In this document: positions 39,457 through 62,376 of the stretch, in pieces
How the letters are laid out: each line of letters begins with the position of its first letter
Position numbering within the stretch: position 1 is the stretch's first letter
DNA from: an uncultured Alphaproteobacteria bacterium
Lineage (GTDB): Bacteria; Pseudomonadota; Alphaproteobacteria; HIMB59; GCA-002718135
NCBI GenBank assembly: GCA_902577425.1
Contig: CACGZD010000001.1
Span: forward strand, 510,414 to 574,413
Length of the DNA stretch: 64,000 bases
Direction: 5' to 3'
The notes under the pieces: model-generated
Told to the model about the DNA's origin: nothing
The model's input: only the letters and a program-made list of their open reading frames with translations
Databases searched by the model: none
Program-made: the position numbers and the translations under genes

Positions 39457-41262
39457 TTATCTTTGAAGTTTTGAGGCTTTTTCTGAATTAGCCCACCATG
39501 ACTCTATAACTAAGCCATACAAGGGAATCTCATCCGGAAATTCCAAAAAATTCCAATAGGCTATACGGTCTGTATTACTATGATACAAGGGAATAACATA
39601 GTGCCCCCATAATAAAACTCTGTCTAATGCATGGATAGCCGTTGTTAATTCTTCTCTAGTTTTTGCTCCTATTAAAGTTTCAATTAAACTATCCACTACT
39701 GGACTATTAACCCCAGCATAATTTTTACTTCCATCTTTTTTACCAACTTCAGATCCCCAATAAAATTGTTGCTCATTTCCTGGACTCAAGCTTACATTCC
39801 AAGAAGCTTTAATCATATCAAAATCATAATTTAGCATTCTTGCTTGATATTGAGAAGAATCTACAGTTCGCACGGACATAGTAATACCTAAAACCTCCAA
39901 AGTTTTTTGAAAAGCCAATGCTATTTTTTCTACAGAAGGACTTACGATTAAAAATTCAAAGGCAAATTCTTTTCCATCTTTCATTAATTTTCCATCTTCA
40001 ACAAACCAACCTTCACCTTCAAGAATTTTTTTTGCTATACGCAAATTATCACGAGGCATACCTGATCCATCAGAAACAGGTGGTTGGTAGGTTTGATTAA
40101 ATATTTCTTTAGGTAATTGATTCTTCCAAGGATTAAGAAGTTTTAATTCATTTTCAGATGGTAGTCCTGAGGATGCCAGTGGAGAATTATCAAAATAACT
40201 ATCTGTACGAGTATAAGCATTATTATATAAAGCTTTATTGATCCATTCATGATCATAGGCATAGCTTAATGCAAGCCTTACCTGAGGGTTGTTGAAAATT
40301 TCTTTTCTTGAGTTCATAACAAGAGCATTCATTCCAGTTGGTCGATCATTTTTCATTTCCTGTAAAATGACATCCCCTCTATCTACTGCATCAAAAGTAT
40401 AATTACTTTGCCATCGTTTAGCATTGTACTCTCTTCTATAATCATATTCCCCAACCTTAAATGCTTCTAGTAGTACATTCGAGTCTTTGTAGTAATCATA
40501 AATTAACGTATCAAAATTATATTGACCCTTATTTGCTAATAAATCTTTTGCCCAATAATCTTTGACTCTTTGATATTTAATTTGTCTGCCAGGCTCTAAA
40601 CTTTCTATAGTATACGGACCACTGCCGAGAGGAATATCAAGAAAAGTTTTAGTTACATCAATATTTTCATAATATTTTTTTGGAACAATTGGGAGGAAGC
40701 CAGCTATGATTAATGGCAATTCTTTATCTTCATTGTTAACAAAGATCATTTTAATTCCATTTTGATCTACGAGTTCTGTTTTAATAACTTTGCCGTATGT
40801 TTTCTTTTGATTAGGCGTTCCCTTATTTTGAAAAGTTTCAAGACTAAACAAAACATCTTCTCTAGTAATAGGAGAGCCATCATGAAATTTAGCTTTAGGA
40901 TTTATATAAAATGTTATGGAAGATCGGTCTTCTGGCATTTCTGCATATTCTGCTATTAAACCATATAATGAAAAAGCCTCATCCCATACTCTTCGCATTA
41001 AGGTGTCATTTATATAGCCCAACCCTGCTGCTCTCGATCCTTTGAAAGCTATACGATTTAAATTATCAAAAGAACCATAAACACCTAAGCGCAAGACACC
41101 CCCTTTGGGCGCATCTGGATTGACATAGGGAAGATGCTTTTTATCCGAACCATGCATTGGTAATCCATGCATAGCGATCCCATGCATTTTATTTGCTAGA
41201 CCAGACTGAGAAAATAAAAAAACAAATAAAAGTATAATAAATTTATGACATATAAATTTCAT
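39457..41262 (-). CDS. Family 5 ABC substrate-binding protein (YejA-like)
   Basis: HGIAMHG, YVNPDAPKGG, YGLIAE, PLGSGPY, DYWAKDL, LDRVLLWGHYVIP. Confidence 0.88.
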   Translation of the reverse strand: MKFICHKFIILLFVFLFSQSGLANKMHGIAMHGLPMHGSDKKHLPYVNPDAPKGGVLRLGVYGSFDNLNRIAFKGSRAAGLGYINDTLMRRVWDEAFSLYGLIAEYAEMPEDRSSITFYINPKAKFHDGSPITREDVLFSLETFQNKGTPNQKKTYGKVIKTELVDQNGIKMIFVNNEDKELPLIIAGFLPIVPKKYYENIDVTKTFLDIPLGSGPYTIESLEPGRQIKYQRVKDYWAKDLLANKGQYNFDTLIYDYYKDSNVLLEAFKVGEYDYRREYNAKRWQSNYTFDAVDRGDVILQEMKNDRPTGMNALVMNSRKEIFNNPQVRLALSYAYDHEWINKALYNNAYTRTDSYFDNSPLASSGLPSENELKLLNPWKNQLPKEIFNQTYQPPVSDGSGMPRDNLRIAKKILEGEGWFVEDGKLMKDGKEFAFEFLIVSPSVEKIALAFQKTLEVLGITMSVRTVDSSQYQARMLNYDFDMIKASWNVSLSPGNEQQFYWGSEVGKKDGSKNYAGVNSPVVDSLIETLIGAKTREELTTAIHALDRVLLWGHYVIPLYHSNTDRIAYWNFLEFPDEIPLYGLVIESWWANSEKASKLQR

Positions 41263-41352
41263 ATTTGTTATCTTATCAATAGTTACTATATAAATGAAGT
41301 AACTTTATGATAATTTATCAAAGTTAATATTTTAGTATATAGTTTTATTTTA

Positions 41353-42273
41353 ATGAAAAAAATTTTACCTTCAGAAATTACCCCATATTCAACATATTTG
41401 AATAGAAGAAAATTTGTCAAAACTGCAAGCGCCTTTTCTATAGCTACATCGCTATCTCTTTCGGCAAAAGCTTTACATAATAACGATTCATCTAAATACA
41501 TTTCAAAATTAGATGAAAATGATGAGCTAAATACCTATGAAGAAATAACAACCTATAATAATTTTTATGAATTTGGAATGGGCAAATCTGATCCGTCAAA
41601 TAACTCAAGCTTGTTTAATCCTAAACCTTGGACTATCAAAATTGAAGGCTTAGTAGAAAAACCATTAGAGATAAATTTAGAAGATCTGCTAAAAAAAATT
41701 CAGATTGAAGATCGTATATATAGACTTAGATGTGTCGAAGCGTGGTCAATGGTAATTCCATGGCAGGGTTTTCCATTATCAGAGTTAATTAAAATTGCTT
41801 CTCCCCTCAGTAGCGCAAAATATATTCAATTTGTCACTATCTTTCGACCTGAAGAAATGCCGGGACAAAAAAGACGTCTATTGCCATGGCCTTATGTTGA
41901 AGGTTTAAGAATGGATGAAGCAATGAACCCACTAACAATTTTATCAACTGGTTTATATGGCCATGATTTATTAAATCAAAACGGCGCTCCCCTTAGACTT
42001 GTAGTTCCTTGGAAATATGGGTTTAAATCAATTAAATCCATTGAAACTATTCGTTTTGTTGAAAAACAACCAAGTGCTACATGGTCAATGGTAGCTCCAA
42101 ATGAGTATGGTTTTTATTCAAATGTAAATAATACTGTAGACCATCCAAGATGGAGCCAAGCAACTGAAAGAAGAATTGGTGAATTTATGCGTCGTCCCAC
42201 TCTCATGTTTAATGGATATGAAGAAGAAGTTGCTCATTTGTATAAAGATATGGATCTTCAAACATATTATTAA
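41353..42273 (+). CDS. msrP: Methionine sulfoxide reductase catalytic subunit
   Basis: Tat [41 protein letters not shown]. Confidence 0.96.
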
Positions 42274-42276
42274 AAT

Positions 42277-42873
42277 ATGCTTTCGACCAACAGGGTTAAA
42301 AAAACAAAACCCCCAATTATAATATTGTTATTTCTTCCAAGTTTATATTGGATTTATTTATTATTGATAGGAAATTTAGGAGTAAACCCTATTGAAAAAC
42401 TAATGGATAATTTAGGCGAGATGGCTTTAAGATTAATTATTCTAACACTTATTATTTCTTCTCTTTCCGATTTAAAATTTTTTCGATCCTTAGTTACGCT
42501 GCGTCGAACAATTGGTTTATTTGCTTTTTATTATGTATGTTTACATTTTTCGACTTATATTTTTTTAGATCATTTTTTTAATTTTCAATTCATCATCAAG
42601 GATATTATTAAAAGACCATTTATTACTTTTGGATTTATTAGTTTTTTGTGTTTAATACCTATGGCCATCACTTCATTTGATGGCATGATAAAAAAATTAG
42701 GTTTTAATTTATGGAAAAAAATTCATTACCTAATCTACCCAGCTGCTATTCTTTCAAGTTTTCATTTTTTTATGTTGGTTAGGGCTAATAAAACAGAGCC
42801 TTTAATTTATATAGGTATAATTATTTTATTATTAAGTTATCGTTTCTATAAAAAAATATTTATTCGTCGATAG
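42277..42873 (+). CDS. msrQ: Methionine sulfoxide reductase heme-binding subunit
   Basis: RRTIGL, YVCLHF, KRPFIT, WKKIHYL, HF. Confidence 0.93.
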   Translation: MLSTNRVKKTKPPIIILLFLPSLYWIYLLLIGNLGVNPIEKLMDNLGEMALRLIILTLIISSLSDLKFFRSLVTLRRTIGLFAFYYVCLHFSTYIFLDHFFNFQFIIKDIIKRPFITFGFISFLCLIPMAITSFDGMIKKLGFNLWKKIHYLIYPAAILSSFHFFMLVRANKTEPLIYIGIIILLLSYRFYKKIFIRR

Positions 42874-44095
42874 GATCAGTAACAGGATTTAATTCCATAC
42901 CAGCAGCAGTAATATTTCGAGGCAATGGTGTATATTGTGATTCCAAATCTACTGGCTTTGCTCTTTTTGCCATTCTGTATAATCCAAAGAGACCAAGCAT
43001 TGCATGCCCTATTAATAAATAAATAAAAAACCCATTAGCTCCAATCAAACTCATAAAACTAGAAACCAATATTGGTCCCATTACCGCTCCTATTCCAACA
43101 AGAATAGCAAAAGAAGAACTTGCCGCAACTATTTCATCAGGTTTTAAAAAATCATTAACATGTGCTACCGCCAGGGAATACATTGGTAAACAAACAGCTG
43201 AATAAAAAGCGACAAAAATAAAAAACATAATTAATGAAAGATAAGAGGAGCCTACAATAAGTAAGCATAATCCAGAGGCTATAAAAGTAGTCCCTATTAA
43301 TATGATTCTTCGGTCAATTCTGTCAGACAAATATCCAATAGGCCACTGGGAAAGTGCCCCAAAAGAACTAATTATGACCATAAACATTGAAATTTCAAAT
43401 AGCCCCAGTTCTTTAGAAGCGGCATACACAGCTCCATATCCAAAAACGGCACTATGAATTAGTCCTGTAAACAAAGCGCCAATAAATCCAAGTGGTGATA
43501 TGATATAAAACTCTTTTAAGGATAAAGATTTTGGGTTTGAAAAATTTGGTTGCTCTGTAGTTGATAATAATATTGGTAAAAGCGCAAAAGATAATAATAC
43601 TGAAACTAATATAAATAAATCTACTTTAGCAGGATCACTAATGTTTAAGAGAAATTGACCGCATCCAAGAAATGCAAAAGTTATAATCATATAAACTGAT
43701 AAAAGTTGGCCACGTGTTTCATTTGTTGATTTGTCATTTAACCAACTTTCCATAATAACAAAAATGCCTGACAAACTTATTCCAGTTAATATTCTAATAC
43801 AAAACCAAGAATAAGGATCTAATAAAACTGAGTGAAGAAGAATTGCAATTGATGCCAAAGAAGCCAAAGCAGCAAATACACGTATATGACCTACTCGCCT
43901 TAATAGTATCGGAATTAATAATGATCCTGATAAATAACCAACATAGTATCCTGCCACTATGACACCTGTAGAAAAAAAACCAAAACCTTCTATTACAGAT
44001 CTGACTCCTATTAATGTTCCTTGCAGTCCATGTGCTAGACAAATTATTGCAAAGCCAAAAAAAAGGGCCCACGTTTTAGATAGTATAGTAGTCAT
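42860..44095 (-). CDS. MFS transporter (YcaD-like)
   Basis: Twelve TM, RRVGHIR, ESWLN, GYLSDRIDRR. Confidence 0.88.
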   Translation of the reverse strand: MTTILSKTWALFFGFAIICLAHGLQGTLIGVRSVIEGFGFFSTGVIVAGYYVGYLSGSLLIPILLRRVGHIRVFAALASLASIAILLHSVLLDPYSWFCIRILTGISLSGIFVIMESWLNDKSTNETRGQLLSVYMIITFAFLGCGQFLLNISDPAKVDLFILVSVLLSFALLPILLSTTEQPNFSNPKSLSLKEFYIISPLGFIGALFTGLIHSAVFGYGAVYAASKELGLFEISMFMVIISSFGALSQWPIGYLSDRIDRRIILIGTTFIASGLCLLIVGSSYLSLIMFFIFVAFYSAVCLPMYSLAVAHVNDFLKPDEIVAASSSFAILVGIGAVMGPILVSSFMSLIGANGFFIYLLIGHAMLGLFGLYRMAKRAKPVDLESQYTPLPRNITAAGMELNPVTDPIDE

Positions 44096-44137
44096 ATAAA
44101 TGAATGTAATTAGTTAATAGTTGGTGTTTTATTTAAT

Positions 44138-44494
44138 CTAGTATTCTTCTTCGCCTTCTTCTGTTGGTTTAATACCAACGTCGACAGCTGGATCGACATC
44201 TGTTTCATCTTCAAGAAGTACTGTATCATCTTCTACTTGATCTTCAGTATTATCTAAATCCAAATTCTCTATGTCTAGATCGTCTTCTTTTTCTTTTGGT
44301 TTAGGAGGTATTGGGTTTGTTAAAGGTGCAGCATTTGTTGTGCCAGGTTTACGACCTCTTCGTGGACGAGACATTGTTGTAACTTCAATTTCTTTTCCAC
44401 ACTCAGGACATTCCAATTCAGTCCTTCCTAAATCGTAGTATTGTTTGCTACACATAGGACAAATTCTTTTTAAACCCCAGGATTCTTTGTACAT
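44138..44494 (-). CDS. TIGR02300/FYDLN_acid family zinc-ribbon protein
   Basis: WGLKRICPMC..YYDL..CPECG followed by a very acidic tail; start at ATG 44494. Confidence 0.82.
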   Translation of the reverse strand: MYKESWGLKRICPMCSKQYYDLGRTELECPECGKEIEVTTMSRPRRGRKPGTTNAAPLTNPIPPKPKEKEDDLDIENLDLDNTEDQVEDDTVLLEDETDVDPAVDVGIKPTEEGEEEY

Positions 44495-44495
44495 A

Positions 44496-44657
44496 TTATT
44501 CTTGATCTCTCTCGTATATTTTTCCGCAGTAACTACAAACAATTTTATTTGTTGAACCAAATGTATAGTAAACTGCGGGATGTCCTAAACCATCTTGTCC
44601 CCCATCGCAACAAATAGTTTCAATATCTGCAGGAACTTTTGTCACTTCTTCATCCAT
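44496..44657 (-). CDS. zf-CHCC zinc-finger protein (NDUFS6-like), missing from the ORF track
   Basis: Hand translation MDEEVTKVPADIETICCDGGQDGLGHPAVYYTFGSTNKIVCSYCGKIYERDQE (53 aa): CDGG..GHP..CxYC. Confidence 0.88.
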   Translation of the reverse strand: MDEEVTKVPADIETICCDGGQDGLGHPAVYYTFGSTNKIVCSYCGKIYERDQE

Positions 44658-44728: not shown

Positions 44729-45568
44729 CTATAACTGGAAATAAACAATACCAATTCCCATGACTATTAATATGGAAGGAATAATTCTCTTTTTTGCCTC
44801 TTTTTCAGCTAAAAATAATAATCCAATAATTGCTGCAATAACTATACTTATTTCTCTAATACTAGACACATAGGCAATTTCAATAAACTGCATTCCCCAC
44901 ACAACCAACGCATAACTACTCGTTGCAAAAAATCCAGCCGCAATTCCAGATTTAATGGTATATGAACTCCTATCTCTAAGACCCTTTTTTGAAAAAATTG
45001 AAATGATTAAAAGAGGTACTCCGTTTAAGGCAAATAACCAGAATATATAAGTAAAACCATTTTCAGCTTTTCTTACTCCAATACCATCCACTAAAGTATA
45101 TAGTGTGATTAATACAGCTGTAGATAATGCTAAAAAAAAAGCGGCTCTATTAAATTCTATTTTTGAAGAAAATGAAATCAAAAATAAACCTAGGCAAACT
45201 ATTATTATGCCTCCAAAACCGTATGTATTTATAGAGGTTGATAAAAATACAATACTAAAGAGAGCGATTAAAAGTGAAGAGCCTCCTCTAGCTATAGGAT
45301 AAACAAATGATAAATCTCCATATTTATAAGAATAAATAACATTCAATCTATAGAGTACGTGAATGATTACTGTTGCTAATAAAAAAAACCAAATTTCTAA
45401 AGTAGGAAAAGGAACATAAAAAGTGAGAGGAATAAAAATTATAATTTCCATCAAAGAAGTTATGCCCATTAAAGATAAAGGATTAGAACTTGATTTTATA
45501 ATAGCACTCCATGTTGCATGAAATAGAGCTGATAAAAGAATTAATAAGAAAATAAAATTTATTGTCAA
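44729..45568 (-). CDS. DMT transporter, phosphonate-utilisation-associated type (TIGR03340-like)
   Basis: SALFHATW, GDLSFVYPIARG, YTLVDG, SIREISIV; divergent from phnA. Confidence 0.75.
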   Translation of the reverse strand: MTINFIFLLILLSALFHATWSAIIKSSSNPLSLMGITSLMEIIIFIPLTFYVPFPTLEIWFFLLATVIIHVLYRLNVIYSYKYGDLSFVYPIARGGSSLLIALFSIVFLSTSINTYGFGGIIIVCLGLFLISFSSKIEFNRAAFFLALSTAVLITLYTLVDGIGVRKAENGFTYIFWLFALNGVPLLIISIFSKKGLRDRSSYTIKSGIAAGFFATSSYALVVWGMQFIEIAYVSSIREISIVIAAIIGLLFLAEKEAKKRIIPSILIVMGIGIVYFQL

Positions 45569-45604
45569 AGTTATGCTTTCATTAATTAAGTATTATTTAT
45601 AATC

Positions 45605-45630
45605 TATTGATTTTTATTGTCGTATCAATA
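45605..45630. promoter_or_regulatory. Inverted repeat between DMT and phnA (possible operator)
   Basis: TATTGAT-N12-ATCAATA. Confidence 0.35.
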
Positions 45631-45644
45631 TATAAAGCAAAAAA

Positions 45645-46889
45645 ATGACCAATACTCTTTCTATTAATAATAGAGAATATCCTAGTATTCTAAATCAAAC
45701 ATCCATTGTTATATGTCTTGATGGTAGTCAAAAAGAATACATAGATGAAGCATCAAAGTTAAATCTTACACCAAACCTTGATGATATTATACAAAAGGGA
45801 GAGTATCTTATGGCCCATAGTGCCATTCCAAGTTTTACAAATCCAAATAATATTTCAATTGTTACAGGTCAGCCAAGTTCTGTACACGGTATTTGTGGAA
45901 ATTTTTTTTATACACCTGAAACTGGCAAAGAAGTGATGATGAATGATCCTCAGTATCTAAGGGCTCCAACAATATTTGAAAAATTTTATCAAGCAGGTGC
46001 AAAAATTGCACTTGTAACAGCTAAAGACAAATTACGCACACTTCTTGGTAATGGTTTAAAATTTAATGAAGGTAGAACAATATGTTTCTCTGCTGAAAAA
46101 TCAGATCAAGCAACAAAAATAGAAAACGGAATTGAAAATGTTAATGACTGGTTGGGCATGCCAGTTCCAGAAGTTTACTCTCAGGATTTATCAGAGTTTG
46201 TAATGGCAGCTGGCGTTAAACTCATGGAAGAATTTAAACCAGATATTATGTATCTATCAACAACTGATTATATTCAGCACAAGTATGCCCCAGGACACGA
46301 AGTTGCTAACAAATTTTATTCCATGTTTGATAAATATATTGGTCAACTAGATGAATTAGGTGCAACAATTATTATTACATCCGATCATGGCATGAAGCCA
46401 AAATCAAAAGAAGATGGCTCTCCCAATGCAATTTTTTTACAAGACCATCTTGATGATAAATTTAATAAAAATAAAACAAAAGTCATTCTTCCTATTACAG
46501 ATCCCTATGTTGTACACCATGGCGCTTTAGGTTCTTTCGCTACAATTTATTTAGAAGATAAAAATGATTTAGAAGATGTAATGATGGAGATAAAAAAGAT
46601 CAAAGATATTGAAGTAGTTTTAAATAAGGAAGAAGGCTGTTCCCAATACAATCTGCCTAAAGATAGAATGGGAGATATTATTTGTATGTCCTCTGAATTT
46701 ATGACTATTGGTTCTTCTAAAGATAAGCACAATCTAAGTGGTTTAAATGAACCACTTCGCTCACATGGTGGGTTGCATGAGAGGGAAGTACCCTTTATTG
46801 TAAATAAAAAAATGCCTCAAATTGATTCTAATAAACAATTATATAACTATGATGCATTTTATTATGCAATCTCTGGAACAAATTCATGA
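45645..46889 (+). CDS. phnA: Phosphonoacetate hydrolase
   Basis: [42 protein letters not shown]. Confidence 0.95.
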
Positions 46890-48325
46890 ACAATAAAATC
46901 ATAAATGAATCAATGCGTATAGCTGGTAAAAAGGTTAATGCAGAAAAAGTTATAGAAGTTGAATATCCTTTCACTGGAGATGTTATAGGAACTGTTCCTG
47001 CAGGAAATGCAGAACATGCTAAACAAGCTTTAGATATTGCTGCAAACTTTACACCAAAATTAACAAGATATGAGAGGCAAAAAATTTTACAAAATACTGC
47101 GGAATTATTAGTTAAAAGAAAAGATGAAATTTCAGATATGATCACAATGGAACTTGGTTTATCAAAGCAAGATTCGTTATATGAAGTAGGAAGAGCATTT
47201 GATGTTTTTTCTCTTACCGCTCAATTATGTATTTATGATGATGGTGAGATATTTTCGTGTGATTTAACGCCACATGGAAAGGCTAGAAAAATTTTTACTA
47301 TACGAGAACCTCTAACAGCTATTTCAGCTATTACACCTTTTAATCACCCTTTAAATATGGTGGCACATAAAATTGCTCCTTCTATAGCAACTAATAACTG
47401 CACTGTTTGCAAACAAACTGAGTTAACGCCAATGACAGCTATGTTGTTAGCGGATATATTATATGAGGCAGGCTTACCACCTGAGATGTTCTCAGTAGTT
47501 ACTGGCTGGCCTGATGATATTGGATTAGAAATGATTCAAAATCCTAATATTGATTTAATAACATTTACTGGAAGTGTAGGTGTTGGAAAATATATTGCAG
47601 AACAAGCTGGATACAAAAGAACTGTTTTAGAATTAGGAGGTAATGACCCTCTAATTGTTTTAAATGATTTAGATGAAGACGATCTAAAGAAAGCAGTTGA
47701 ACTTGCTGTTACTGGTGCTACAAAAAATTCTGGCCAACGTTGCACAGCTGTTAAAAGAATATTATGTCAAAACAAAATAGCTGATCGATTTGTTGAAATG
47801 GCCTTAGAGAGAGCAAAGAAAATTAAATTTGGTGACCCAATGGATTTAAAAACGGATTTAGGTACGGTTGTAAATGCCGAAGCAGCACAATTATTTGATA
47901 AACGTGTCTCTATGGCAGCTGAAGATGGTGCTAAAATATTATATCATCCTGGACTTGAAGGCGCTTTGTTGCCTCCTATTGTAATTGATCATGTTAATCC
48001 AAAAAGTGAACTAGTAATGGAAGAAACATTTGGTCCTGTCATTCCTATCATTAGAGTTCCTGATGAAGATGATGAAGTTATAACAATTTCTAATTCCACT
48101 GCTTTTGGATTATCTTCTGGAGTTTGTACGAATAATTTTATGAGGGCAAAAAAATATATTCAAAATTTAAATGTTGGTACAGTTAACATATGGGAAGTTC
48201 CTGGGTACAGAATAGAGATGTCTCCTTTTGGGGGAATTAAAGACTCAGGCCTGGGTTATAAAGAGGGAGTTATCGAAGCGATGAAAAGTTTTACTAATGT
48301 AAAAACATTTTCACTTCCTTGGTAG
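46886..48325 (+). CDS. phnY: Phosphonoacetaldehyde dehydrogenase (NAD+)
   Basis: ALDH: [33 protein letters not shown]; overlaps phnA. Confidence 0.92.
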
Positions 48326-48401
48326 ATTTTTAATAAACTAAAATATTTTTGTTAATCAAGATGCTTTTGAAAAAGTAGTAATTACTTTAAATTTTTACAA
48401 A

Positions 48402-49214
48402 TTAAAATTTTTTAGTTGTCTCAAACCAATTGATATTATCTTTTAAAAAGTCTTCAGTATGGACTACCAGTGAGTTTTTATTAATTAATATTACATTATA
48501 ATTTGGATCAGTATTGGCCGTTCCCAATCTATAGTTTTTTGAAAAATTGGGCACTAATGGAGACCAAGTACTTCTCGGCGCACTAAAAGGTATATTTAAA
48601 TAATTTCCTGATACCGTAATATGTTGATGACCAAAAAAAATATGTTGAATAATTTTTTTAAATTTAATTAATATATCTTTAAATTCATCTCCTTGTTGTA
48701 AACCAATATAATCACTATTGGGTTCTCCTAGGGGTAAGGGATTATGATGCATAAAAAGATAAACTTGTTTATTATTATCTGAAGCATTTTCCAGAGTATT
48801 TATAATCCAACTTTGTCTGTTGTTGCAAAAATGTCCTTGATGGGTATTTGATAAATTTGTATCTAAAAAAATAAAACGTTTATCTTCAATGTCTTCAAAA
48901 TATTGAACAAAACCATTGTCATCTAAAGGTATTTTTGTAAATATTTGTTTGAATTGTTCTCTATCATCATGATTGCCCATAAGTAATTTTGGAAACAAAT
49001 GTTTTGGTATTTTGGAATTTAATAATATTTCATTTAATTTATTATAAGATTCACTATCCCCGTCATGCGTTAAATCTCCTGATATAACAAATAGCTTTGA
49101 GTCTAAATGATTGTTGCAAATATGTTGAAGTGCTAGTGAAAATCTCTCTTTAGCATCATGTTCAAAAAGTTTATCTGGAGAAATATGAGGATCTGATAAA
49201 TGGATTATTTTCAT
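48402..49214 (-). CDS. Calcineurin-like metallophosphoesterase (CpdA/GpdQ-like)
   Basis: SDPH, SGDLTHDG, GNHD, MHHNP, FGHQH. Confidence 0.88.
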   Translation of the reverse strand: MKIIHLSDPHISPDKLFEHDAKERFSLALQHICNNHLDSKLFVISGDLTHDGDSESYNKLNEILLNSKIPKHLFPKLLMGNHDDREQFKQIFTKIPLDDNGFVQYFEDIEDKRFIFLDTNLSNTHQGHFCNNRQSWIINTLENASDNNKQVYLFMHHNPLPLGEPNSDYIGLQQGDEFKDILIKFKKIIQHIFFGHQHITVSGNYLNIPFSAPRSTWSPLVPNFSKNYRLGTANTDPNYNVILINKNSLVVHTEDFLKDNINWFETTKKF

Positions 49215-49241
49215 ATTTAAAAAAATATTTTAAATGAATAA

Positions 49242-49871
49242 TTAAAGTTTTGTTTTAAAAAAAAGATACTTATTAAATTCTTTATTTAAATCGATGCTAA
49301 CACGGGCATGTACTTTCCCTTGTTTGCCCATAAAAGAACTTTTCTTTTGAACAGGGAAAACACCCTCATGCCAAATATTGGGATGAATATATAAACCTTT
49401 TGATCCATCAAAATAAAATGCCTTAAAATCTTCTGCTTGAATATCATCGCCAGGTAACGCAAGAGGTGAAATAAATGGACCTCTTTCAGAGGGAAAAAAT
49501 AACTGTCCTCCATCTGGGTGGTAATTAACATGCCATATATAAATCTCTTCTGGCTCACTATATTCTGTATTATTTTCAATATTTTCTGGAGGGGCAGAAT
49601 ATCCTAAAATATATTTTCCATCTATTTCATACTCACTATTATGTTGCACAGCATTATTTTGCCCATAAAGAGTTGATCCTTCCCACCAAGTATCAAACGA
49701 ACCTTCGGTATAGCCCGCTTCATTACCTGTTCCTTCATCAATTTCTCGCCAACCCTGCTTTGGCCAAGTTACAATTTCAACATCACTGTTTTCAAATGAG
49801 TCTATTAAATAACCATATCCTTTAAGAGTTTCATTTGTAGCTTTGACTAAGGGGATTTCAATGGCCTGCAT
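49242..49871 (-). CDS. Ureidoglycolate-lyase (AllA)-like cupin
   Basis: LKGYG start motif, NYHPDGGQLFFP (cf. ERHPLGSQAF), GLYIHPNIWH. Confidence 0.7.
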   Translation of the reverse strand: MQAIEIPLVKATNETLKGYGYLIDSFENSDVEIVTWPKQGWREIDEGTGNEAGYTEGSFDTWWEGSTLYGQNNAVQHNSEYEIDGKYILGYSAPPENIENNTEYSEPEEIYIWHVNYHPDGGQLFFPSERGPFISPLALPGDDIQAEDFKAFYFDGSKGLYIHPNIWHEGVFPVQKKSSFMGKQGKVHARVSIDLNKEFNKYLFFKTKL

Positions 49872-49882
49872 AAATATTGCTT

Positions 49883-50983
49883 TTAATTAATTTTAATTTG
49901 TAATTCATTAACAACTTCTTTTATGGCCTTAATGGTATCATGCATATCATTGTCATCTAAATTTCCAATACATCCAATACGAAAAGTATCAGCAACAGTA
50001 AGCTTCCCTGGATAAATCAAAAAATCTTTATTACTCAAAGCATCATAAAATTCTTCAAAATTAAAATTTGAATTTTGAGGCTGCATAAACGTTATAATTA
50101 TTGGCGCTTGTAATTCATTTGACAGTAATTGTTTAAAACCTATTTCTTTCATACCATCACAAATTATTTTGCAATTATTTGAATACCTTTTATGTCTTCC
50201 TTCAACCCCCCCTTCTTTTGAATGTTCATTTATAGCTTGTTGAAAGGCAGCTAAAACATGTGTGGGAGGAGTAAAACGCCACTGTTTATTTTTTTTCATT
50301 GCTTGCCATTGATCATATAGATCTAAACTTAAAGAATGTGCATTTCCTTTTGCTTTTTCGATAATATTATTTTTAACTAAAATAAAGCCTACTCCAGGAA
50401 CTCCTTCTAAACATTTATTGGAAGAAGCAGCAACAGCATCAAATACAATTGTTTTACTACTAAGAGGAAGAGCGCCAAAAGCACTCATAGCATCAATAAA
50501 TAATGATAAATTTTTTTTTGCTACTAAGTCAGATATTTTTTGAATAGGATTTAATATTCCTGAGGTTGTTTCACAGTAAACAGCAAACACATGAGTTAAA
50601 TCAGTATTAGAATCTATAATGTTTTCAATTTCATCTAAATCATGTTGTTCATGTTCCGCCACTTCATAAGCAATACATTCTCTACCAACATAGTCACACA
50701 TTTTTTTCATACGGTGACCATATGCTCCATTAATTAATATTAATATTTTTGCATCTTTAGATGTGAGAGAGCCAACCATTGATTCTACTGCAAATGTTCC
50801 GCTACCTTGCATTGGAACACATTGGTAATTATTTTCACCATCAATAAGTTTTACAAGAGATTCACGAATAGAATGGTTCAGATCAATAAATTTTTGATCT
50901 CGCGAACCCCAATCATGAAGCATGGCTTCTTTGGTTGTCATGGAGGTAGTAAGTGGTCCAGGTGTAAGAAGTTTTTTATCCAT
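49883..50983 (-). CDS. phnW: 2-aminoethylphosphonate:pyruvate transaminase
   Basis: LLTPGPLTTS, DWGSRD, MQGSGTFAVE, CETTSG, SSNKCLEG, WRFTPP. Confidence 0.96.
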   Translation of the reverse strand: MDKKLLTPGPLTTSMTTKEAMLHDWGSRDQKFIDLNHSIRESLVKLIDGENNYQCVPMQGSGTFAVESMVGSLTSKDAKILILINGAYGHRMKKMCDYVGRECIAYEVAEHEQHDLDEIENIIDSNTDLTHVFAVYCETTSGILNPIQKISDLVAKKNLSLFIDAMSAFGALPLSSKTIVFDAVAASSNKCLEGVPGVGFILVKNNIIEKAKGNAHSLSLDLYDQWQAMKKNKQWRFTPPTHVLAAFQQAINEHSKEGGVEGRHKRYSNNCKIICDGMKEIGFKQLLSNELQAPIIITFMQPQNSNFNFEEFYDALSNKDFLIYPGKLTVADTFRIGCIGNLDDNDMHDTIKAIKEVVNELQIKIN

Positions 50984-50992
50984 ATTCTTAAT

Positions 50993-51023
50993 TGAGTTAA
51001 CTATTTAATTCTTAATTAGCTCA
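50993..51023. promoter_or_regulatory. Imperfect inverted repeat between phnW and phnZ (possible operator)
   Basis: TGAGTTAA-N15-TTAGCTCA, one mismatch. Confidence 0.3.
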
Positions 51024-51081
51024 CTAGCAATTAAATAAAAAATTGATTTGCAATTTTTTCTTAAAGTTGTATTTTTTCTGT

Positions 51082-51642
51082 GTGGAAAATATTGTTAATC
51101 ATCTATTAAATCTTTTGGCGACCAAAGGAGCTGATCTACAGTATGGAAATGAAGATGTAACACAATTAGAACATGCCTTACAATGTGCTGAATTAGCAGA
51201 AAATAATAATTTACCTAATCCTACTATAGCGGCCGCTTTGCTACATGATATAGGGCACTTATTATATGATGGTGATGACCCCATTCATGAAGGCAAAGAT
51301 GGTCATCACGAAAATATAGGAGCAAATTATTTAGCTGAATATTTTGGAGAGGAGGTTATTCGCCCAATACAAGCACATGTTGATTCTAAGAGATATTTAT
51401 CTGCTGTAGAAGAAGGATATTATGACCTTCTATCTGAAGCATCAAAACTATCTTTAGAAGCTCAAGGTGGTCCTTTTACAAAGGAAGAAGCCAAAATTTT
51501 TGTTGAAAAACCTTTCATGAAAGAAGCTATAGAATTAAGACGTTTTGATGATCAAGCCAAAATCTTAAATAAAAAAACGCCTTCTCTTGATTATTTTAAA
51601 CATTATGTTGAAGAGGCTCATAATTTATTTTTAAATAATTAA
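51082..51642 (+). CDS. phnZ: PhnZ-type HD-domain diiron oxygenase
   Basis: YGNE..QLEHALQCA, LLHDIGH, HENIG, HVDSKRYL, LSEASKLSLEAQGG, RRFDDQAK; likely GTG start at 51082. Confidence 0.88.
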   Translation: MENIVNHLLNLLATKGADLQYGNEDVTQLEHALQCAELAENNNLPNPTIAAALLHDIGHLLYDGDDPIHEGKDGHHENIGANYLAEYFGEEVIRPIQAHVDSKRYLSAVEEGYYDLLSEASKLSLEAQGGPFTKEEAKIFVEKPFMKEAIELRRFDDQAKILNKKTPSLDYFKHYVEEAHNLFLNN

Positions 51643-51645
51643 TTT

Positions 51646-52170
51646 ATGAATTTTGACAATTATGATTTTTTAGATACCTCTAAATTTGCTGGAAAAATTA
51701 TTCTTACATCTTTCCCTGGTTTAATCGAAAATACGCGTTTTGATATTTCATTTTTTTTAAAAGAGTTAAAAATATTTAAGGATAATAATTGTTCTTCAAT
51801 TACATCTTTTGTAGAAGATAGTGAGTTTGAAAAAATCTGTGATAAAAAAAACTTCGTTGAACAAATCTATCATAATAAGTTAAAGTGGTACCATCTACCT
51901 ATTAAAGATTTAGGTGCTCCTAATACTGAATTTAAATTTAAGTGGGAAACAACAAAAGTTTTATTAAAAAATGAATTGATCGAAGGCAAAAATATAGTTT
52001 TGCATTGTCGTGGAGGAAAAGGACGGGCAGGAACAGTTGCCGCATTATTATTAATTGATTTTGGAGTTAAAAAAGAAGAGGCTATTCAGCTCGTACGATC
52101 AAGAAGAAAAGGTGCTATTGAAACAAAAGAACAAGAAGAATTTATTTTTTCTTATAGACCTGTAGCTTAG
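51646..52170 (+). CDS. CX5R cysteine phosphatase (CDKN3/dual-specificity-like)
   Basis: HLPIKD acid loop, HCRGGKGRAG P-loop, GAIETKEQ. Confidence 0.88.
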   Translation: MNFDNYDFLDTSKFAGKIILTSFPGLIENTRFDISFFLKELKIFKDNNCSSITSFVEDSEFEKICDKKNFVEQIYHNKLKWYHLPIKDLGAPNTEFKFKWETTKVLLKNELIEGKNIVLHCRGGKGRAGTVAALLLIDFGVKKEEAIQLVRSRRKGAIETKEQEEFIFSYRPVA

Positions 52171-53219
52171 TAATTTACGGTTAAATTAAAAATATTTTGT
52201 AACACAAATAAAATTATAAAAGATATTAATGCTGCAAGGATTGGCAACAAAACCCAACCTATAGAAATTTTCCTTGCAATTGTCCATTGAACCTCTTTTC
52301 CACCTTTTAATAATCCTATACCAATTACACCACCCACGACTGCTTGAGAGCTTGATACTGGAACAAGAGGAATTGAGGGTAAATTAATTGACTGAAGAAA
52401 ATTACTAATACCTTGAGAAGCAAATAAAAATAAAACGATAGAATGAGCTAGTACAACGATAAAAGCGGCTACAGGGGACATTTTTAATAAATCATTTCCA
52501 ACAGTAAACATTACTTTTTTAGAATAAGTAAAAACACCAACTGCTATAGCAATACCACCTAATAGAAAAAGTTGCTCTTTGGACGAGAAATTAAAATCAT
52601 TTAAAATATTAATATCAGTAAAAGGTGAGATAGGGACAAAAACCCCCATTACATTAGCAATGTTATTAGCTCCTAGACTGTACGCTCCAAAAGCACCAGC
52701 TAATAAAAGAGCCGTTCTCGTATATGCGTCTAATCGCAGAATATGTAATTTTGCTTTTTGTAGAAAATTTTTTGTTATTACAAAAAAAAGCATTGAAAGC
52801 AAACCAGCAATAATAGGACATAAAACCCAAGTACCTAAAATTGTAATTAAAACTTGAATATTGGTTGAAGATCCAGTGTACAAGTTCCATCCTATAATAG
52901 CGCCAACAATTGCCTGCGTTGTTGAAACAGGAAGACCAGATTTTGTCATTATATATACTGAGAGCCCAGCAGCAATACATGCAGCAAAAGCTCCAGGCAA
53001 TGCATTGATTGATCCGAGCTTACCCAGTGTTTCGGTTGTTCCAGATCCACTAATAATAGCTCCTAGAATAACAAAGATACTACAAACAATTGCAGCAGTT
53101 TTAAATTGTACCATGCGCGTGCCAACCGCAGTTCCAAAAACATTAGCTGCATCATTGGCTCCTAAAGACCATCCTAGAAATAATCCTCCTAAGAGAAAAA
53201 TAATAATTGTTAATTCCAT
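52167..53219 (-). CDS. PiT family inorganic phosphate transporter
   Basis: GANDAANVFG and GANNIAN signatures, PVSTTQ, PVSSSQ. Confidence 0.92.
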   Translation of the reverse strand: MELTIIIFLLGGLFLGWSLGANDAANVFGTAVGTRMVQFKTAAIVCSIFVILGAIISGSGTTETLGKLGSINALPGAFAACIAAGLSVYIMTKSGLPVSTTQAIVGAIIGWNLYTGSSTNIQVLITILGTWVLCPIIAGLLSMLFFVITKNFLQKAKLHILRLDAYTRTALLLAGAFGAYSLGANNIANVMGVFVPISPFTDINILNDFNFSSKEQLFLLGGIAIAVGVFTYSKKVMFTVGNDLLKMSPVAAFIVVLAHSIVLFLFASQGISNFLQSINLPSIPLVPVSSSQAVVGGVIGIGLLKGGKEVQWTIARKISIGWVLLPILAALISFIILFVLQNIFNLTVNY

Positions 53220-53226
53220 AAATTAA

Positions 53227-53889
53227 TTAAACTGATCTTTTGATAGCGTAGATCTGAATTTCATCTGAAATATCTTCTGCTTGATCACAAATACGATCAA
53301 TTTTTTCAACAAAATAACGTAGATGCATTTTTTGATCCAAAGAAAGATTAGAATCAAAAATTTTTCTCGCCAAAGAACTAAATTTTATATCAGATTCTTT
53401 TTCATAAAATGTTACTTTGTGTGCATTGTCTCTAACAGATTTAATATCTCTAAAAAACGATCTTACTGTTAAACATAGTGCCTCTACACAATTTACTACA
53501 GTCTCTGTTAAATCAATTAAATCGTCATGAAACTCTTTTGGAAAATTTGGTTTTTGAATAGAGAAATGATAACAATTACCTTGATACATTCCAATAACTT
53601 CATCAAGATGTTCAAGAACTCTTAATACATCACTTCGAGCATCGGGAATTAATGTTTCTTCATATAAGGTGTGCTCCACTTCTTTGGTTATTTTATCAGC
53701 CTTACTTTCCATTAATTTAACTTGTTCGACCATTTCATCAAATTTGCCATTGGCAGAACTAGATAAATATGTTGGAATAATAGACTTAAATACCAAGCCT
53801 ACTTCAGAGAGAATATCAACAAATTCGTCTATTTCTCTCTCTAATTTTTTGGTTTCACCAAATAAAGATGTACTTTTTAATCCAAACAT
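53227..53889 (-). CDS. DUF47 (PhoU-like) PiT accessory protein
   Basis: ESKADKI, YEKESD, DQAEDISD; directly upstream of PiT. Confidence 0.9.
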   Translation of the reverse strand: MFGLKSTSLFGETKKLEREIDEFVDILSEVGLVFKSIIPTYLSSSANGKFDEMVEQVKLMESKADKITKEVEHTLYEETLIPDARSDVLRVLEHLDEVIGMYQGNCYHFSIQKPNFPKEFHDDLIDLTETVVNCVEALCLTVRSFFRDIKSVRDNAHKVTFYEKESDIKFSSLARKIFDSNLSLDQKMHLRYFVEKIDRICDQAEDISDEIQIYAIKRSV

Positions 53890-54019: not shown

Positions 54020-54247
54020 ATGAATTATGTATCGATGAACCAATTAAAATGGCTAAGTACTGGATTAGTATTAGCAGGAATTTTATTAACTAATTTAAAT
54101 TATTATCCATTAAATATTTTTACTCATGGTCTTGGCGCCATAGGATGGGCTATTGCTGGTTATATTGCCAAAGATAGAGCTTTAATGACAAATTTTGGAT
54201 TTCAAATTCCTCTATTTGCGATTGGATATTTTTACTATTTTACTTAA
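54020..54247 (+). CDS. Small membrane protein (DUF6552-like)
   Basis: GGAG RBS; KWLSTGLVL, YPLNIF, KDRALM; two to three TM segments. Confidence 0.7.
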   Translation: MNYVSMNQLKWLSTGLVLAGILLTNLNYYPLNIFTHGLGAIGWAIAGYIAKDRALMTNFGFQIPLFAIGYFYYFT

Positions 54248-54250
54248 TAG

Positions 54251-54673
54251 ATGAAAAAAGTTTTATTTATGTGTGTTGCTAATTCAGCTAGAAGCCAAAT
54301 GGCCGAAGGTATAGCAAAAAGCATTTATCTCGATTTTAAAATTGAAAGTGCTGGTTCAAAACCAACAAAATTAAATCCTATTGCAGTTAAAGTTATGAAT
54401 GAAATTGGAATTGATATAAGTAACAATTTTTCTAAAGATATTAATAGTTTAAATAAAAAATTTATTGATGAATTAGATTATGTAATAACTTTGTGCAAAG
54501 AAGAAGTTTGTCCAATTATTATAACGAATGCTAAAAAAATTCACCTACCTTTTCTTGATCCTGCTATAGATAATTTACCTGAAAAAGAGTTGATTAAAAA
54601 TTTTAGAGATATACGTAATCAAATAAAGAAAAAAATTATTGAATTAAAAACTATATTTGAAGTATCTTTTTAG
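54251..54673 (+). CDS. arsC: Arsenate reductase, LMW-PTP/thioredoxin type
   Basis: CVANSARSQMAEG, SAGS, TLC..VCP, DPA. Confidence 0.88.
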   Translation: MKKVLFMCVANSARSQMAEGIAKSIYLDFKIESAGSKPTKLNPIAVKVMNEIGIDISNNFSKDINSLNKKFIDELDYVITLCKEEVCPIIITNAKKIHLPFLDPAIDNLPEKELIKNFRDIRNQIKKKIIELKTIFEVSF

Positions 54674-54736
54674 TCTTTATTAATTTTTTAATAAGAGAGG
54701 TTTTTTTAGGAAATAATAAATTAATTATTCATCATT

Positions 54737-55393
54737 CTATTTAATTAATATTTTTCCTAAATAAGTTGCTATGATTGAGCCAATTATCTGAGCTAATATA
54801 AATAACAATATGCTACCTGGATCTATACCAGTAAAAGTATTGGTAAACATTCTGCCTATAGTAACAGCTGGATTAGCAAAACTAGTAGATGAAGTAAACC
54901 AATAACCTGCAGTAATAAAAAGAGCAACGGCTATAGGTAAGTTTTGTTTATTTTGTTTACCAACTAATATAATAGTTAAAATTAAACCAAAAGTAGCAAC
55001 TATCTCTGAAAAAAAAGTATAAATCCCAAATCTGTTATTTGTTGATAATTCATATATTGGATATTCAAAATACCAATTTGCAGTGAAGCATCCTAATATA
55101 GCACCTATAATATGAGTCAAAATGAATAATAAAACTATTTTTAATTCTATTTTTTTTTGAATAAGATCGCTGAGTAGAACTACAGGATTAAAATATGCAC
55201 CTGAAATATTTATAAACATTGATATTAATACATATAATATAGCACCTGTAGCCAAAGCATTTGCTAATAAAGTTATTGCTAAATTTCCATTTGATAAGTT
55301 TTGACCCATAATTCCACTTCCCACAATGGTTAAAACAAGAAAATAAGAGCCAATAAATTCAGATATCAATTTTTGAAATAAAGATTTTTGCAT
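54737..55393 (-). CDS. MIP channel, AqpS-like
   Basis: SEFIGS, SGAYFNPVV, WFTSSTSFANPAVT. Confidence 0.85.
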   Translation of the reverse strand: MQKSLFQKLISEFIGSYFLVLTIVGSGIMGQNLSNGNLAITLLANALATGAILYVLISMFINISGAYFNPVVLLSDLIQKKIELKIVLLFILTHIIGAILGCFTANWYFEYPIYELSTNNRFGIYTFFSEIVATFGLILTIILVGKQNKQNLPIAVALFITAGYWFTSSTSFANPAVTIGRMFTNTFTGIDPGSILLFILAQIIGSIIATYLGKILIK

Positions 55394-55526: not shown

Positions 55527-56024
55527 ATGAAAAAATTATGGTTCAAAAAAAAATCTTCTCTTCATGGATCGGGACTATTCGCTCTAAGTAATGTTAAAAA
55601 GGGTGAACAAGTAATTGAATATATAGGTGATAAAGTAACTAAAAAAGAAGGTGATAAAAGAGCCGATAAACAAATAAAAAAAGCTGAAAAAAATAAAAAA
55701 AATGGAATGGTCTATGTTTTTGAACTCAATAAAAAATATGACATTGATGGGGGGGTAGCTCGAAATTATGCACGTTTTATCAATCACTCCTGTGATCCAA
55801 ATTGTGAAGTAGAAATAACCAATAATCATATTTGGATATCATCGATTAAAAAAATTAAAAAAGGAGCAGAATTAACATATAATTACGGCTATCCCTTTGA
55901 TAGTGATTTTGAAGATCATATTTGTAAATGTGGATCTAAAAAATGTGTAGGGTATATTTTAAGTGACGATGATTGGCCCAAGCTAAAAAAATATGAAAAA
56001 AAACATAAAAAGGGCTCTAGATAA
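55527..56024 (+). CDS. SET-domain protein-lysine methyltransferase with post-SET
   Basis: HGSGLFA, EYIG, RFINHSCDPNC, ELTYNY, CKCGSKKC. Confidence 0.93.
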   Translation: MKKLWFKKKSSLHGSGLFALSNVKKGEQVIEYIGDKVTKKEGDKRADKQIKKAEKNKKNGMVYVFELNKKYDIDGGVARNYARFINHSCDPNCEVEITNNHIWISSIKKIKKGAELTYNYGYPFDSDFEDHICKCGSKKCVGYILSDDDWPKLKKYEKKHKKGSR

Positions 56025-57030: not shown

Positions 57031-57042
57031 TAAAAAACAAAT

Positions 57043-57060
57043 CTTTAATATTTCTGTAAT
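57043..57060 (+). promoter_or_regulatory. Pho box upstream of pstS
   Basis: CTTTAAT-ATTT-CTGTAAT. Confidence 0.65.
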
Positions 57061-57105
57061 ATTATAGATCTATTTCTACCTTAAATTTATTTAAAGAGGT
57101 TTAAA

Positions 57106-58101: not shown

Positions 58102-58117
58102 CCTTAATCTAATTGAA

Positions 58118-58147
58118 TAAAAAGAGGGGATTTCCCCCTCTTTTTTT
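58118..58147 (+). terminator. Intrinsic terminator after pstS
   Basis: A-run, GAGGGG-ATTTC-CCCCTC, T7. Confidence 0.85.
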
Positions 58148-58150
58148 ATT

Positions 58151-58179
58151 GACTCATATCATTGTAATATAACTGTAAC
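58151..58179 (+). promoter_or_regulatory. Pho box(es) upstream of pstC
   Basis: GACTCAT-ATCA-TTGTAAT-ATAA-CTGTAAC, 11-bp periodicity. Confidence 0.8.
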
Positions 58180-58208
58180 AAAAGTTTAGTATTCTTTCTA
58201 AATATCTA

Positions 58209-60855: not shown

Positions 60856-60856
60856 T

Positions 60857-62335: not shown

Positions 62336-62353
62336 CTGTAATCAAATTGTAAT
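62336..62353 (+). promoter_or_regulatory. Pho box upstream of phoB
   Basis: CTGTAAT-CAAA-TTGTAAT immediately after the phoU stop. Confidence 0.8.
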
Positions 62354-62376
62354 AAAAATTTATTAAAAAATAAACA

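Follow-up and report, generated by a model that had tools for sequence, protein, structure and literature searches.

We analysed a 64,000-nucleotide stretch of DNA from an uncultured alphaproteobacterium (assembly GCA_902577425.1, contig CACGZD010000001.1, positions 510,414 to 574,413), hereafter called the window. Between its positions 44729 and 52170 lies a gene cluster for 2-aminoethylphosphonate (AEP) degradation. Genes for PhnW, PhnY and PhnA stand there together with genes for a PhnZ-like oxygenase and for three enzymes that a preliminary description of this DNA had left unexplained: a protein resembling the ureidoglycolate lyase AllA, a metallophosphodiesterase and a small CX5R phosphatase. 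The gene order and coordinates of that description held up, each open reading frame (ORF) being found exactly where it had been placed. Its statement that the cluster carries more than PhnW, PhnA and PhnY is also borne out.

The source organism is a SAR11-type (Pelagibacterales-like) alphaproteobacterium, so termed because several relatives labelled Pelagibacteraceae have the same flanking genes as the window. AG-447-P01, a single-cell assembly, is its closest genome, and most other relatives are single-cell genomes from the same collection. Genes were annotated between about 39.5 and 63 kb of the window, with the curated thresholds of NCBI and Pfam models (in bits) as family cut-offs. The ORFs of 65 related loci, whose numbers carry the prefix L, were clustered, and extra genes that recurred among them were then annotated. 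Genomes were scanned with a profile of the AllA-like protein; of 547 confirmed loci, the 80 best were examined, a sample biased toward SAR11. An Rfam scan of the whole window, in which G+C content is about 31%, returned zero matches.

PhnW, PhnY and PhnA all exceed the curated thresholds of their families, are clustered within 45645-50983 and keep their arrangement in relatives. The 2-aminoethylphosphonate:pyruvate transaminase PhnW (49883-50983, minus strand) scores 522 bits against a cut-off of 296 (NF010006) and 474 against 401 (TIGR02326). The nicotinamide adenine dinucleotide (NAD)-dependent phosphonoacetaldehyde dehydrogenase PhnY (46886-48325, plus strand) reaches 785 bits against 636 with the TIGR03250 equivalog model, and the phosphonoacetate hydrolase PhnA (45645-46889, plus strand) 492 against 408 with TIGR02335. 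PhnW, which has been characterised with pyruvate as the acceptor (PMC8154272), would convert AEP to phosphonoacetaldehyde, PhnY would convert this to phosphonoacetate and PhnA would release acetate and phosphate. The family assignments are clear, and they predict flux through this hydrolytic AEP route.

The preliminary description had recognised neither PbfA nor the flavin adenine dinucleotide (FAD)-dependent Pbf enzymes in the cluster, and annotation with family models likewise found none of these in the window: neither a lyase resembling class III aminotransferases (PbfA), nor an FAD oxidase, nor a PbfF-type racemase resembling 2-hydroxyacid dehydrogenases. Only related loci, outside the window, carry an FAD enzyme of the Phn_aa_oxid type and a Phn_Fe-ADH.

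The spacing of the genes suggests three transcription units: phnA-phnY, phnW with the AllA-like and esterase genes, and phnZ with the phosphatase gene. phnA and phnY overlap by 4 bases and are for this reason likely to form one operon. Gaps of 11 bases separate phnW from the AllA-like gene, 27 bases the latter from the esterase gene, and 3 bases phnZ from the phosphatase gene. Next to phnA, in relatives as well as in the window, is the gene of an EamA/DMT permease (44729-45568, minus strand; Pfam accession PF00892, 68 bits). This protein scores 151 bits with TIGR03340 ('phn_DUF6'), below the cut-off of 288; it is related to that family of putative membrane proteins associated with phosphonate use and is the candidate importer for the cluster.

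The AllA-like protein encoded after phnW

The AllA-like cupin protein (49242-49871, minus strand) matches the ureidoglycolate lyase family (Pfam accession PF04115, Ureidogly_lyase) with 39 bits against a cut-off of 23, over residues 112-181 only. Its own family comprises 5,073 clusters at 90% identity, or 705 representatives at 50% identity. AllA is the only solved structure that the family profile matches, with the motifs HPxGxQ..P and WH in common. An AlphaFold model of the protein (predicted local distance difference test score 81.8) likewise gave AllA structures as the top Foldseek matches (2bdr, 1xsq, 1xsr and 1yqc; E values of 1e-8 to 1e-6). Eight AllA equivalog models score the protein at 20-32 bits against cut-offs of 160-315. 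It is also longer by about 45 highly conserved residues, among them an invariant W-P...R...GTG loop left unplaced in the AlphaFold model. On these comparisons the protein is best described as a long form of the ureidoglycolate-lyase family, not a standard AllA. A plain AllA role is also disfavoured by the separate ureidoglycolate lyase that SAR11 encodes in the purine operon (bioRxiv 10.1101/2024.02.09.579562).

The gene is tied closely to phnW. Among 55 species-representative genomes with upstream DNA available, mostly SAR11, the AllA-like gene lies directly downstream of phnW in 54, the sole exception being Candidatus Njordibacter. The phnW/AllA-like pair is kept where PhnZ, the phosphatase and the neighbouring Pit transporter have been replaced (L005, L013, L015, L017 and L060). 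The replacements upstream of the pair consist either of an OpuAC-type ATP-binding cassette (ABC) transporter with a kinase-like gene and a short-chain dehydrogenase/reductase (SDR), or of a permease with an FAD oxidase. A second, Arenicellales-like lineage (L067, L093 and L104) combines a 57%-identical AllA-like protein with PhnW (553 bits), PhnY (806 bits) and a DUF72 gene, and one of its three contigs also carries Pit and PhoU_div genes. A description of this protein was not found in the phosphonate literature searched. We conclude that the AllA-like gene is a true undescribed accessory of phosphonate clusters, worth testing experimentally, and that it encodes a putative enzyme.

The exceptional Njordibacter gene belongs to the complete genome of a gammaproteobacterium, Candidatus Njordibacter sp. 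Uisw_039 (L016 8001-8630). It encodes a protein 76% identical to that of the window and has no phnW nearby; horizontal transfer is likely. It adjoins a PF14099 'polysaccharide lyase' gene, and PF14099 genes are also inserted between the Pit and phosphatase genes in some SAR11 loci.

Some observations weigh against a dedicated phosphonate role. AllA-like homologues of 50-70% identity occur in many phyla in heterogeneous contexts that are not next to phn genes, and the family may act on a general metabolite instead of a phosphonate. The 54 linked genomes, moreover, come mostly from one order, and their agreement partly reflects shared ancestry. No common theme emerged from the neighbourhoods of distant homologues, the partial themes being amine-removing enzymes and a short MetE-like protein. 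One recurring context without phn genes sets a LysR gene beside an AllA-like gene that is accompanied by genes for a class III aminotransferase, a DadA-like FAD oxidase, a binding protein and the short MetE-like protein. Across lineages, the commonest neighbours of AllA-like genes are enzymes that turn amines into carbonyls. The short MetE-like protein (Pfam accession PF01717, about 350 residues) is encoded near AllA-like genes in SAR11 islands and also in an unrelated lineage that lacks phn genes (L053 11684-12790, minus strand; L105 12408-13457; L108 12509-13558). Given this proximity in both lineages, and since the copies are 49-50% identical, the AllA-like and MetE-like proteins may work together.

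The same neighbourhoods favour a reading in which the protein is an ordinary ureidoglycolate-type carbon-nitrogen lyase, or a general hemiaminal lyase, that has no phosphonate substrate. Its link to PhnW would then be indirect, through the supply of glyoxylate as amino acceptor or the clearing of a by-product of amine removal. The protein is truly homologous to AllA and has both of its motifs, and genes near its homologues in other lineages encode M20 peptidases, a CN-hydrolase, an asparaginase and PuuD-like hydrolases besides the class III aminotransferase and DadA-like oxidase. We nevertheless consider this reading unlikely. The scores far below every AllA cut-off and the extra conserved residues set the protein apart, no purine or allantoin genes lie nearby, SAR11 keeps its separate ureidoglycolate lyase in the purine operon, and it is with pyruvate as acceptor that PhnW has been characterised (PMC8154272).

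We favour a role next to PhnW. The AllA-like enzyme, probably co-transcribed with phnW, would serve the PhnW step as an accessory and would act as a lyase or isomerase at a hydroxylated carbon next to a carbonyl. From (R)-1-hydroxy-2-aminoethylphosphonate (R-HAEP), PhnW slowly forms 1-hydroxy-phosphonoacetaldehyde; this product is a dead end, and its decay yields phosphate and glycolaldehyde (PMC8154272). This aldehyde, or its oxidised form hydroxyphosphonoacetate, would be the candidate substrate. By analogy, we tentatively place the enzyme on this hydroxylated branch: both candidates match ureidoglycolate in their HO-CH(X)-C=O layout, and DsyD, another PF04115 domain, acts on a 2-hydroxy acid (PMC11306096). 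A bolder version is that the protein acts directly after PhnW, breaks or rearranges an alpha-hydroxy phosphonate (either of these two candidates) by ureidoglycolate-lyase-type chemistry and would represent a new kind of phosphonate enzyme. By analogy this is conceivable, and we hold it to be a long shot; if true, it would mean that the heterotrophs most abundant in surface seawater have a previously unknown, cofactor-light route for breaking carbon-phosphorus (C-P) bonds. We rejected the AllA-like protein as a missing PhnY*-type hydroxylase for PhnZ, given that it tracks PhnW and persists where PhnZ is absent.

The PhnZ-like oxygenase, the phosphodiesterase and the small phosphatase

The ORF of the PhnZ-like HD-domain diiron oxygenase (plus strand) opens at a TTG at 51043, and its likely start is the GTG at 51082, which yields a protein of 186 residues (51082-51642). 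This start is preferred because of the 186-residue call on metagenome contigs of identical arrangement (L087 and L089). The protein matches the solved structures of PhnZ (4mlm, E value 6e-31) and TmpB (6npa, E value 5e-29). In alignment to 4mlm and 4n71 it keeps the residues that correspond to all six iron ligands of the HD diiron site, with equivalents of H34, H58, D59, H62, H80, H104 and D161 in the pattern EH, HD..H, H, H and D. The equivalents of Y24 and E27 are kept as well, DLQYGNE of the window aligning with DLDYIGE of PhnZ; we take Tyr24 and Glu27 of PhnZ to be its contacts to the 2-amino group of the substrate. The residue numbering of the iron ligands is presumably that of van Staalduinen et al. 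2014.

A PhnY*-type iron/2-oxoglutarate hydroxylase, which would hydroxylate the substrate of PhnZ, was found neither in the cluster, nor in the annotated flanks, nor among the recurrent genes of relatives. The PhnZ-like enzyme would act as an orphan on phosphonates that are already 1-hydroxylated, most likely R-HAEP in the main, which it would cleave to glycine and phosphate. We propose this role because the iron ligands and amino-binding residues are kept, and because a rationale for phnZ in such clusters has been published: 24 of 75 phnWAY clusters include phnZ, in no case alongside pbfA, and the gene has been read as a separate outlet for R-HAEP (Zangelmi et al., PMC8154272). The presence of PhnZ in a phnWAY cluster is thus already explained by the literature and is not new. 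One survey traced 45% of the marine phnZ sequences to Pelagibacterales (PMC9381506). The nearest plasmid homologues (43-50% identity) are also orphans, lying inside C-P lyase operons with no PhnY*-type gene. These orphan loci were seen on Variovorax and Nostoc plasmids (L096 6989-7537 and L098 6001-6561).

Other results count against this assignment. The protein stays under the trusted cut-off of TIGR03276 (200.2 against 214.6 bits), and the specific models for PhnZ1 and TmpB give it 154 and 150 bits, both against 300. It is equally far from PhnZ and TmpB, and its substrate could therefore differ from that proposed here. It is also possible that a PhnY* gene lies elsewhere in the genome, as the survey covered the cluster and its flanks.

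The divergent intergenic region between phnW and phnZ (50984-51081), as read from the sequence, presumably carries both promoters. Within it are two copies of ATTCTTAATT, at 50984-50993 and 51008-51017, 24 bases apart. This region, with both copies, is kept in L006 and not in most relatives, the majority of which have a common intergenic element different from that of the window. A consensus promoter scan was uninformative in this AT-rich (31% G+C) DNA, yielding 54 sites against 55 expected and no excess of promoters or terminators over shuffled sequence.

The second enzyme of unexplained function is a GpdQ-like (class III) metallophosphodiesterase of calcineurin-like fold (48402-49214, minus strand; Pfam accession PF00149, 52 bits). 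Its best solved relatives are GpdQ (2zo9/2dxl/3d03; E value 6e-16, a weak match of 62 bits) and Rv0805, and the metal-site motifs D8-x-H10, GD, GNHD, HH and GHxH can be read in its translation. The model for the SpdA 2',3'-cyclic nucleoside monophosphate (cNMP) phosphodiesterase gives it 181 bits, short of the cut-off of 400, and its sequence, as read, shows no evident signal peptide. Homologues of 35-40% identity form the last gene of Ugp/CUT1-type ABC transporter operons, with no phn genes nearby, on plasmids of Phaeobacter, Tistrella and Phyllobacterium. A Ugp-like transporter cassette, sometimes with a GDPD gene, also stands beside the esterase gene in SAR11 variants and is absent from the window.

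Because the esterase recurs elsewhere with a Ugp-type ABC transporter and not with phn genes, we infer that it belongs to a phosphodiester-scavenging module. It would form the enzymatic end of a Ugp-type module for diester uptake, the transporter of which has been lost, or was never gained, in this strain. GpdQ-type phosphodiesterases process phosphodiesters and phosphonate monoesters (PMC9371700). The enzyme would hydrolyse imported compounds of either kind, such as deacylated phosphonolipid head groups, to free phosphonate or monoester, and release of AEP from deacylated phosphonolipids is by analogy possible. In partial opposition to this assignment, the esterase gene adjoins the AllA-like gene in 37 of 58 loci, which makes a phosphonate-ester role possible. 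We also considered the lipid-remodelling phospholipase PlcP and rejected it: another Metallophos gene, beside a GT4 glycosyltransferase gene, fills that place in relatives, and the two did not cluster.

The third enzyme is a small CX5R phosphatase (51646-52170, plus strand; Pfam accession PF22784, PTP-SAK, 56 bits against 27) of the dual-specificity phosphatase (DSP) or protein tyrosine phosphatase (PTP) fold, with the motif HCRGGKGRAGT, which fits the catalytic loop HCX5R(S/T). It is a small PTP/DSP of archaeal type, and its best solved relative is SsoPTP (E value 3e-12). Next to it on the minus strand lie genes for a Pit-family (PHO4) phosphate transporter (52167-53219; PF01384, 196 bits) and its partner, a PhoU_div (DUF47) protein (53227-53889; PF01865, 80 bits). 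These are followed by an ArsC-like low-molecular-weight phosphatase/arsenate reductase gene (54251-54673, plus strand; PF01451, 60 bits; arsC_pI258_fam, 112 bits, below 174) and a MIP channel gene (54737-55393, minus strand; PF00230, 87 bits). The part of the window at 54020-55393, with a DUF6552 ORF and the ArsC-like and MIP genes, resembles a small arsenate-handling block beside phosphate transporters.

Several lines of evidence connect the phosphatase gene to this side of the cluster. The usual SAR11 order is ArsC-like, DUF6552, PhoU_div, Pit, DSP, PhnZ. A transporter insertion in L006 leaves the DSP gene with Pit and parts it from PhnZ, and in three loci without Pit the DSP gene still adjoins the ArsC-like block. 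Five plasmid homologues were inspected, three of which lie in ars operons, either between arsH and a gapdh-arsJ pair (Methylophaga and Pseudomonas) or after arsC (Klebsiella); none of the five revealed a link to phosphonate genes outside SAR11. Based on the synteny and on these ars-operon homologues, we infer that the phosphatase belongs to the phosphate-arsenate block of Pit, PhoU-like, ArsC-like and MIP genes and not to the phosphonate enzymes. Two facts pull the other way: the DSP gene is next to PhnZ in three SAR11 loci that have neither Pit nor PhoU_div, and the ars-linked homologues are only about 30% identical to the window protein.

The preliminary description had given the cluster a wider substrate range, in which the esterase, the AllA-like protein and the CX5R phosphatase would together carry out undescribed steps of a single extended pathway for esterified or hydroxylated phosphonates. 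All three genes do lie within or against phn genes, with synteny kept in about 45 related genomes; the esterase gene directly follows the AllA-like gene in the 37 loci already mentioned, and the DSP gene directly precedes PhnZ in 44 of 47. This synteny, however, is largely that of one order, and insertions part the esterase from the AllA-like gene and the DSP from PhnZ. Outside SAR11 the esterase pairs with Ugp-type transporters and DSP-like genes with ars genes (three of five contexts), and clusters of MarineAlpha5 and Arenicellales keep PhnW, the AllA-like protein and PhnY without esterase or DSP. We therefore regard a single pathway as improbable. A wider substrate range is in itself plausible, with PhnZ for hydroxylated phosphonates and the GpdQ-like diesterase for esters. 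The expected recurrence with phn genes is seen for the AllA-like gene, in 54 of 55 loci and in a second lineage, and not for the esterase, which is of Ugp-type association, or the CX5R phosphatase, which goes with Pit/ArsC-like genes and ars operons. At most one of the three unexplained enzymes, the AllA-like protein, is thus a well-supported phosphonate accessory, and the earlier interpretation holds in part.

It is quite doubtful that the esterase and the CX5R phosphatase instead act in series, from diesters through monoesters to phosphate and independently of phosphonates and arsenic. Their chemistries are complementary, both proteins appear cytoplasmic, the genes annotated at about 39.5-63 kb of the window include none for an alkaline phosphatase and the whole locus is a Pho-type hub, but the two genes never adjoin and vary independently of each other among loci, the only recurrent context of the DSP homologues is ars operons, and small PTP-fold enzymes are usually not general monoesterases.

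A mosaic phosphorus locus and its known counterparts

The block PhoU_div-Pit-DSP-PhnZ, divergent from PhnW-AllA-like-esterase and followed at a distance by PhnY-PhnA, was found in about 45 species-representative genomes, and the identical minimal arrangement occurs on three metagenome contigs (L087-L089) from three samples. Pit proteins are 84-99% identical among related loci. This arrangement is not due to chance.

The window is a stripped-down version of the island. Most relatives have four further genes between the esterase gene and phnY, which encode a protein that we call 'c2', a phosphonate-type iron alcohol dehydrogenase (TIGR03405, 377 bits), the short MetE-like protein and a UgpB-like binding protein. 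The c2 gene (368 residues; for example L001 11523-12635, minus strand) follows the esterase or AllA-like gene in 49 of 59 related loci and is absent from the window. Its product has zero matches in Pfam, NCBIfam or the PDB; it contains FDAGMGDGS, which is similar to an S-adenosylmethionine-binding motif. Some relatives carry cassettes in the interval between the AllA-like and esterase genes, made up of a GDPD phosphodiesterase with a Ugp-like ABC transporter or of permeases with a UgpB-like binding protein. Others have a PhnS2-type AEP ABC transporter between the DSP gene and PhnZ, or the 'Phn_aa_oxid' FAD oxidase (TIGR03329, 581 bits) before phnW.

Comparison with the closest relative, L006 (over 45663-52919 of the window), reveals DNA identity of about 94% from the esterase gene to phnZ and of only 78% in phnA-phnY. 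This mosaic identity suggests that segments have been exchanged between lineages by recombination inside the island. L006 itself carries two cassette insertions. In L005 (580-6412), and also in L015 and L017, the place of PhnZ, the DSP and Pit upstream of phnW is occupied by genes for a choline-kinase/GntI-like kinase, an SDR and an OpuAC-type ABC transporter. Such a replacement hints at a quaternary-amine or N-methylated phosphonate substrate in those relatives.

Rightward from the cluster, the DUF6552 ORF, the ArsC-like gene, the MIP channel gene and a SET-domain gene lead to phoR-pstS-pstC-pstA-pstB-phoU-phoB (55993-63060, plus strand), the core of the Pho regulon. PstC, PstA, PstB, PhoU and PhoB score above equivalog cut-offs; PhoR (TIGR02966, 296 bits against 334) and PstS (family model, 120 against 207) score below them. 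At this position relatives add polyphosphate kinase, a second Metallophos gene with the GT4 glycosyltransferase, and an acyltransferase. Because of the adjoining pho/pst genes and these additions, the cluster counts as part of the organism's main phosphorus-acquisition locus, and control by PhoB is likely. In the left flank (39457-44560), synteny with L001 identifies genes for a family-5 binding protein, for an MsrP/MsrQ-like pair (Oxidored_molyb and Ferric_reduct) and for a major facilitator superfamily transporter, as well as small FYDLN_acid and zf-CHCC ORFs. These genes are the conserved left border of the variable island.

Taken together, the region is in our assessment probably a variable, mosaic phosphorus-scavenging locus beside phoR-pstSCAB-phoU-phoB, composed of separable modules: the AEP route, PhnZ, the AllA-like protein, a diester module and a phosphate/arsenate module. 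The turnover of AEP makes up a major part of phosphorus cycling in the sea. Among marine phnZ and phnWAY genes, a large share comes from Pelagibacterales (PMC9381506). The AllA-like gene, which travels with phnW in nearly every SAR11-type species examined, is the same type of lead that yielded PbfA and PbfF; solving its function would add a step to phosphonate catabolism or reveal a by-product that the pathway must dispose of. Dividing the locus into a phosphonate core, a diester module and a phosphate/arsenate module also keeps metagenome surveys from counting the esterase and the small phosphatase among the phosphonate genes.

The components of the locus have counterparts in known systems. 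Like the phnWAY clusters with phnZ tabulated by Zangelmi et al. 2021 (PMC8154272, Table 1), the cluster combines PhnW, PhnY and PhnA with a PhnZ homologue and has neither PhnY* nor PbfA. It differs from them in belonging to a SAR11-type genome, in its adjoining pst/pho genes, in the AllA-like gene within the phnW transcription unit and in having no regulator gene in the cluster. The esterase has GpdQ of Enterobacter aerogenes as its best solved relative and resembles it in the metal-ligand motifs and in homologues that end Ugp-type operons, whereas the match is weak (62 bits) and the window gene has no transporter genes and abuts phn genes.

The PTP/DSP genes of ars operons, such as BN5_2710 of Pseudomonas pseudoalcaligenes, a type of gene that has been listed there and is uncharacterised (PMC10138600), encode small CX5R phosphatases of the same family as the window's DSP. 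The latter similarly lies near an ArsC-like gene and Pit, an entry route for phosphate and arsenate; in contrast, it is only about 30% identical to the ars-operon proteins, and its block has no arsB, acr3, arsH or arsJ.

The AllA-like protein shares its fold and core motifs with AllA (1xsq, 1xsr, 1yqc and 2bdr). Unlike AllA, it is about 45 residues longer, has the W-P...R...GTG loop, falls under every equivalog cut-off and is encoded beside phnW and a phosphodiesterase gene, with no purine or allantoin genes nearby in the window. In its behaviour as an optional, recurrent gene of AEP clusters it resembles the Pbf accessories, namely the PbfA lyase, the PbfB-D FAD oxidases and the PbfF racemase (PMC8154272, PMC10590968, PMC12366243), and these papers were not found to describe it. 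It differs from these accessories in being a ureidoglycolate-lyase-family cupin that, so far as its fold indicates, is not dependent on pyridoxal phosphate, FAD or NAD. By analogy with them, it presumably widens or protects the AEP pathway.

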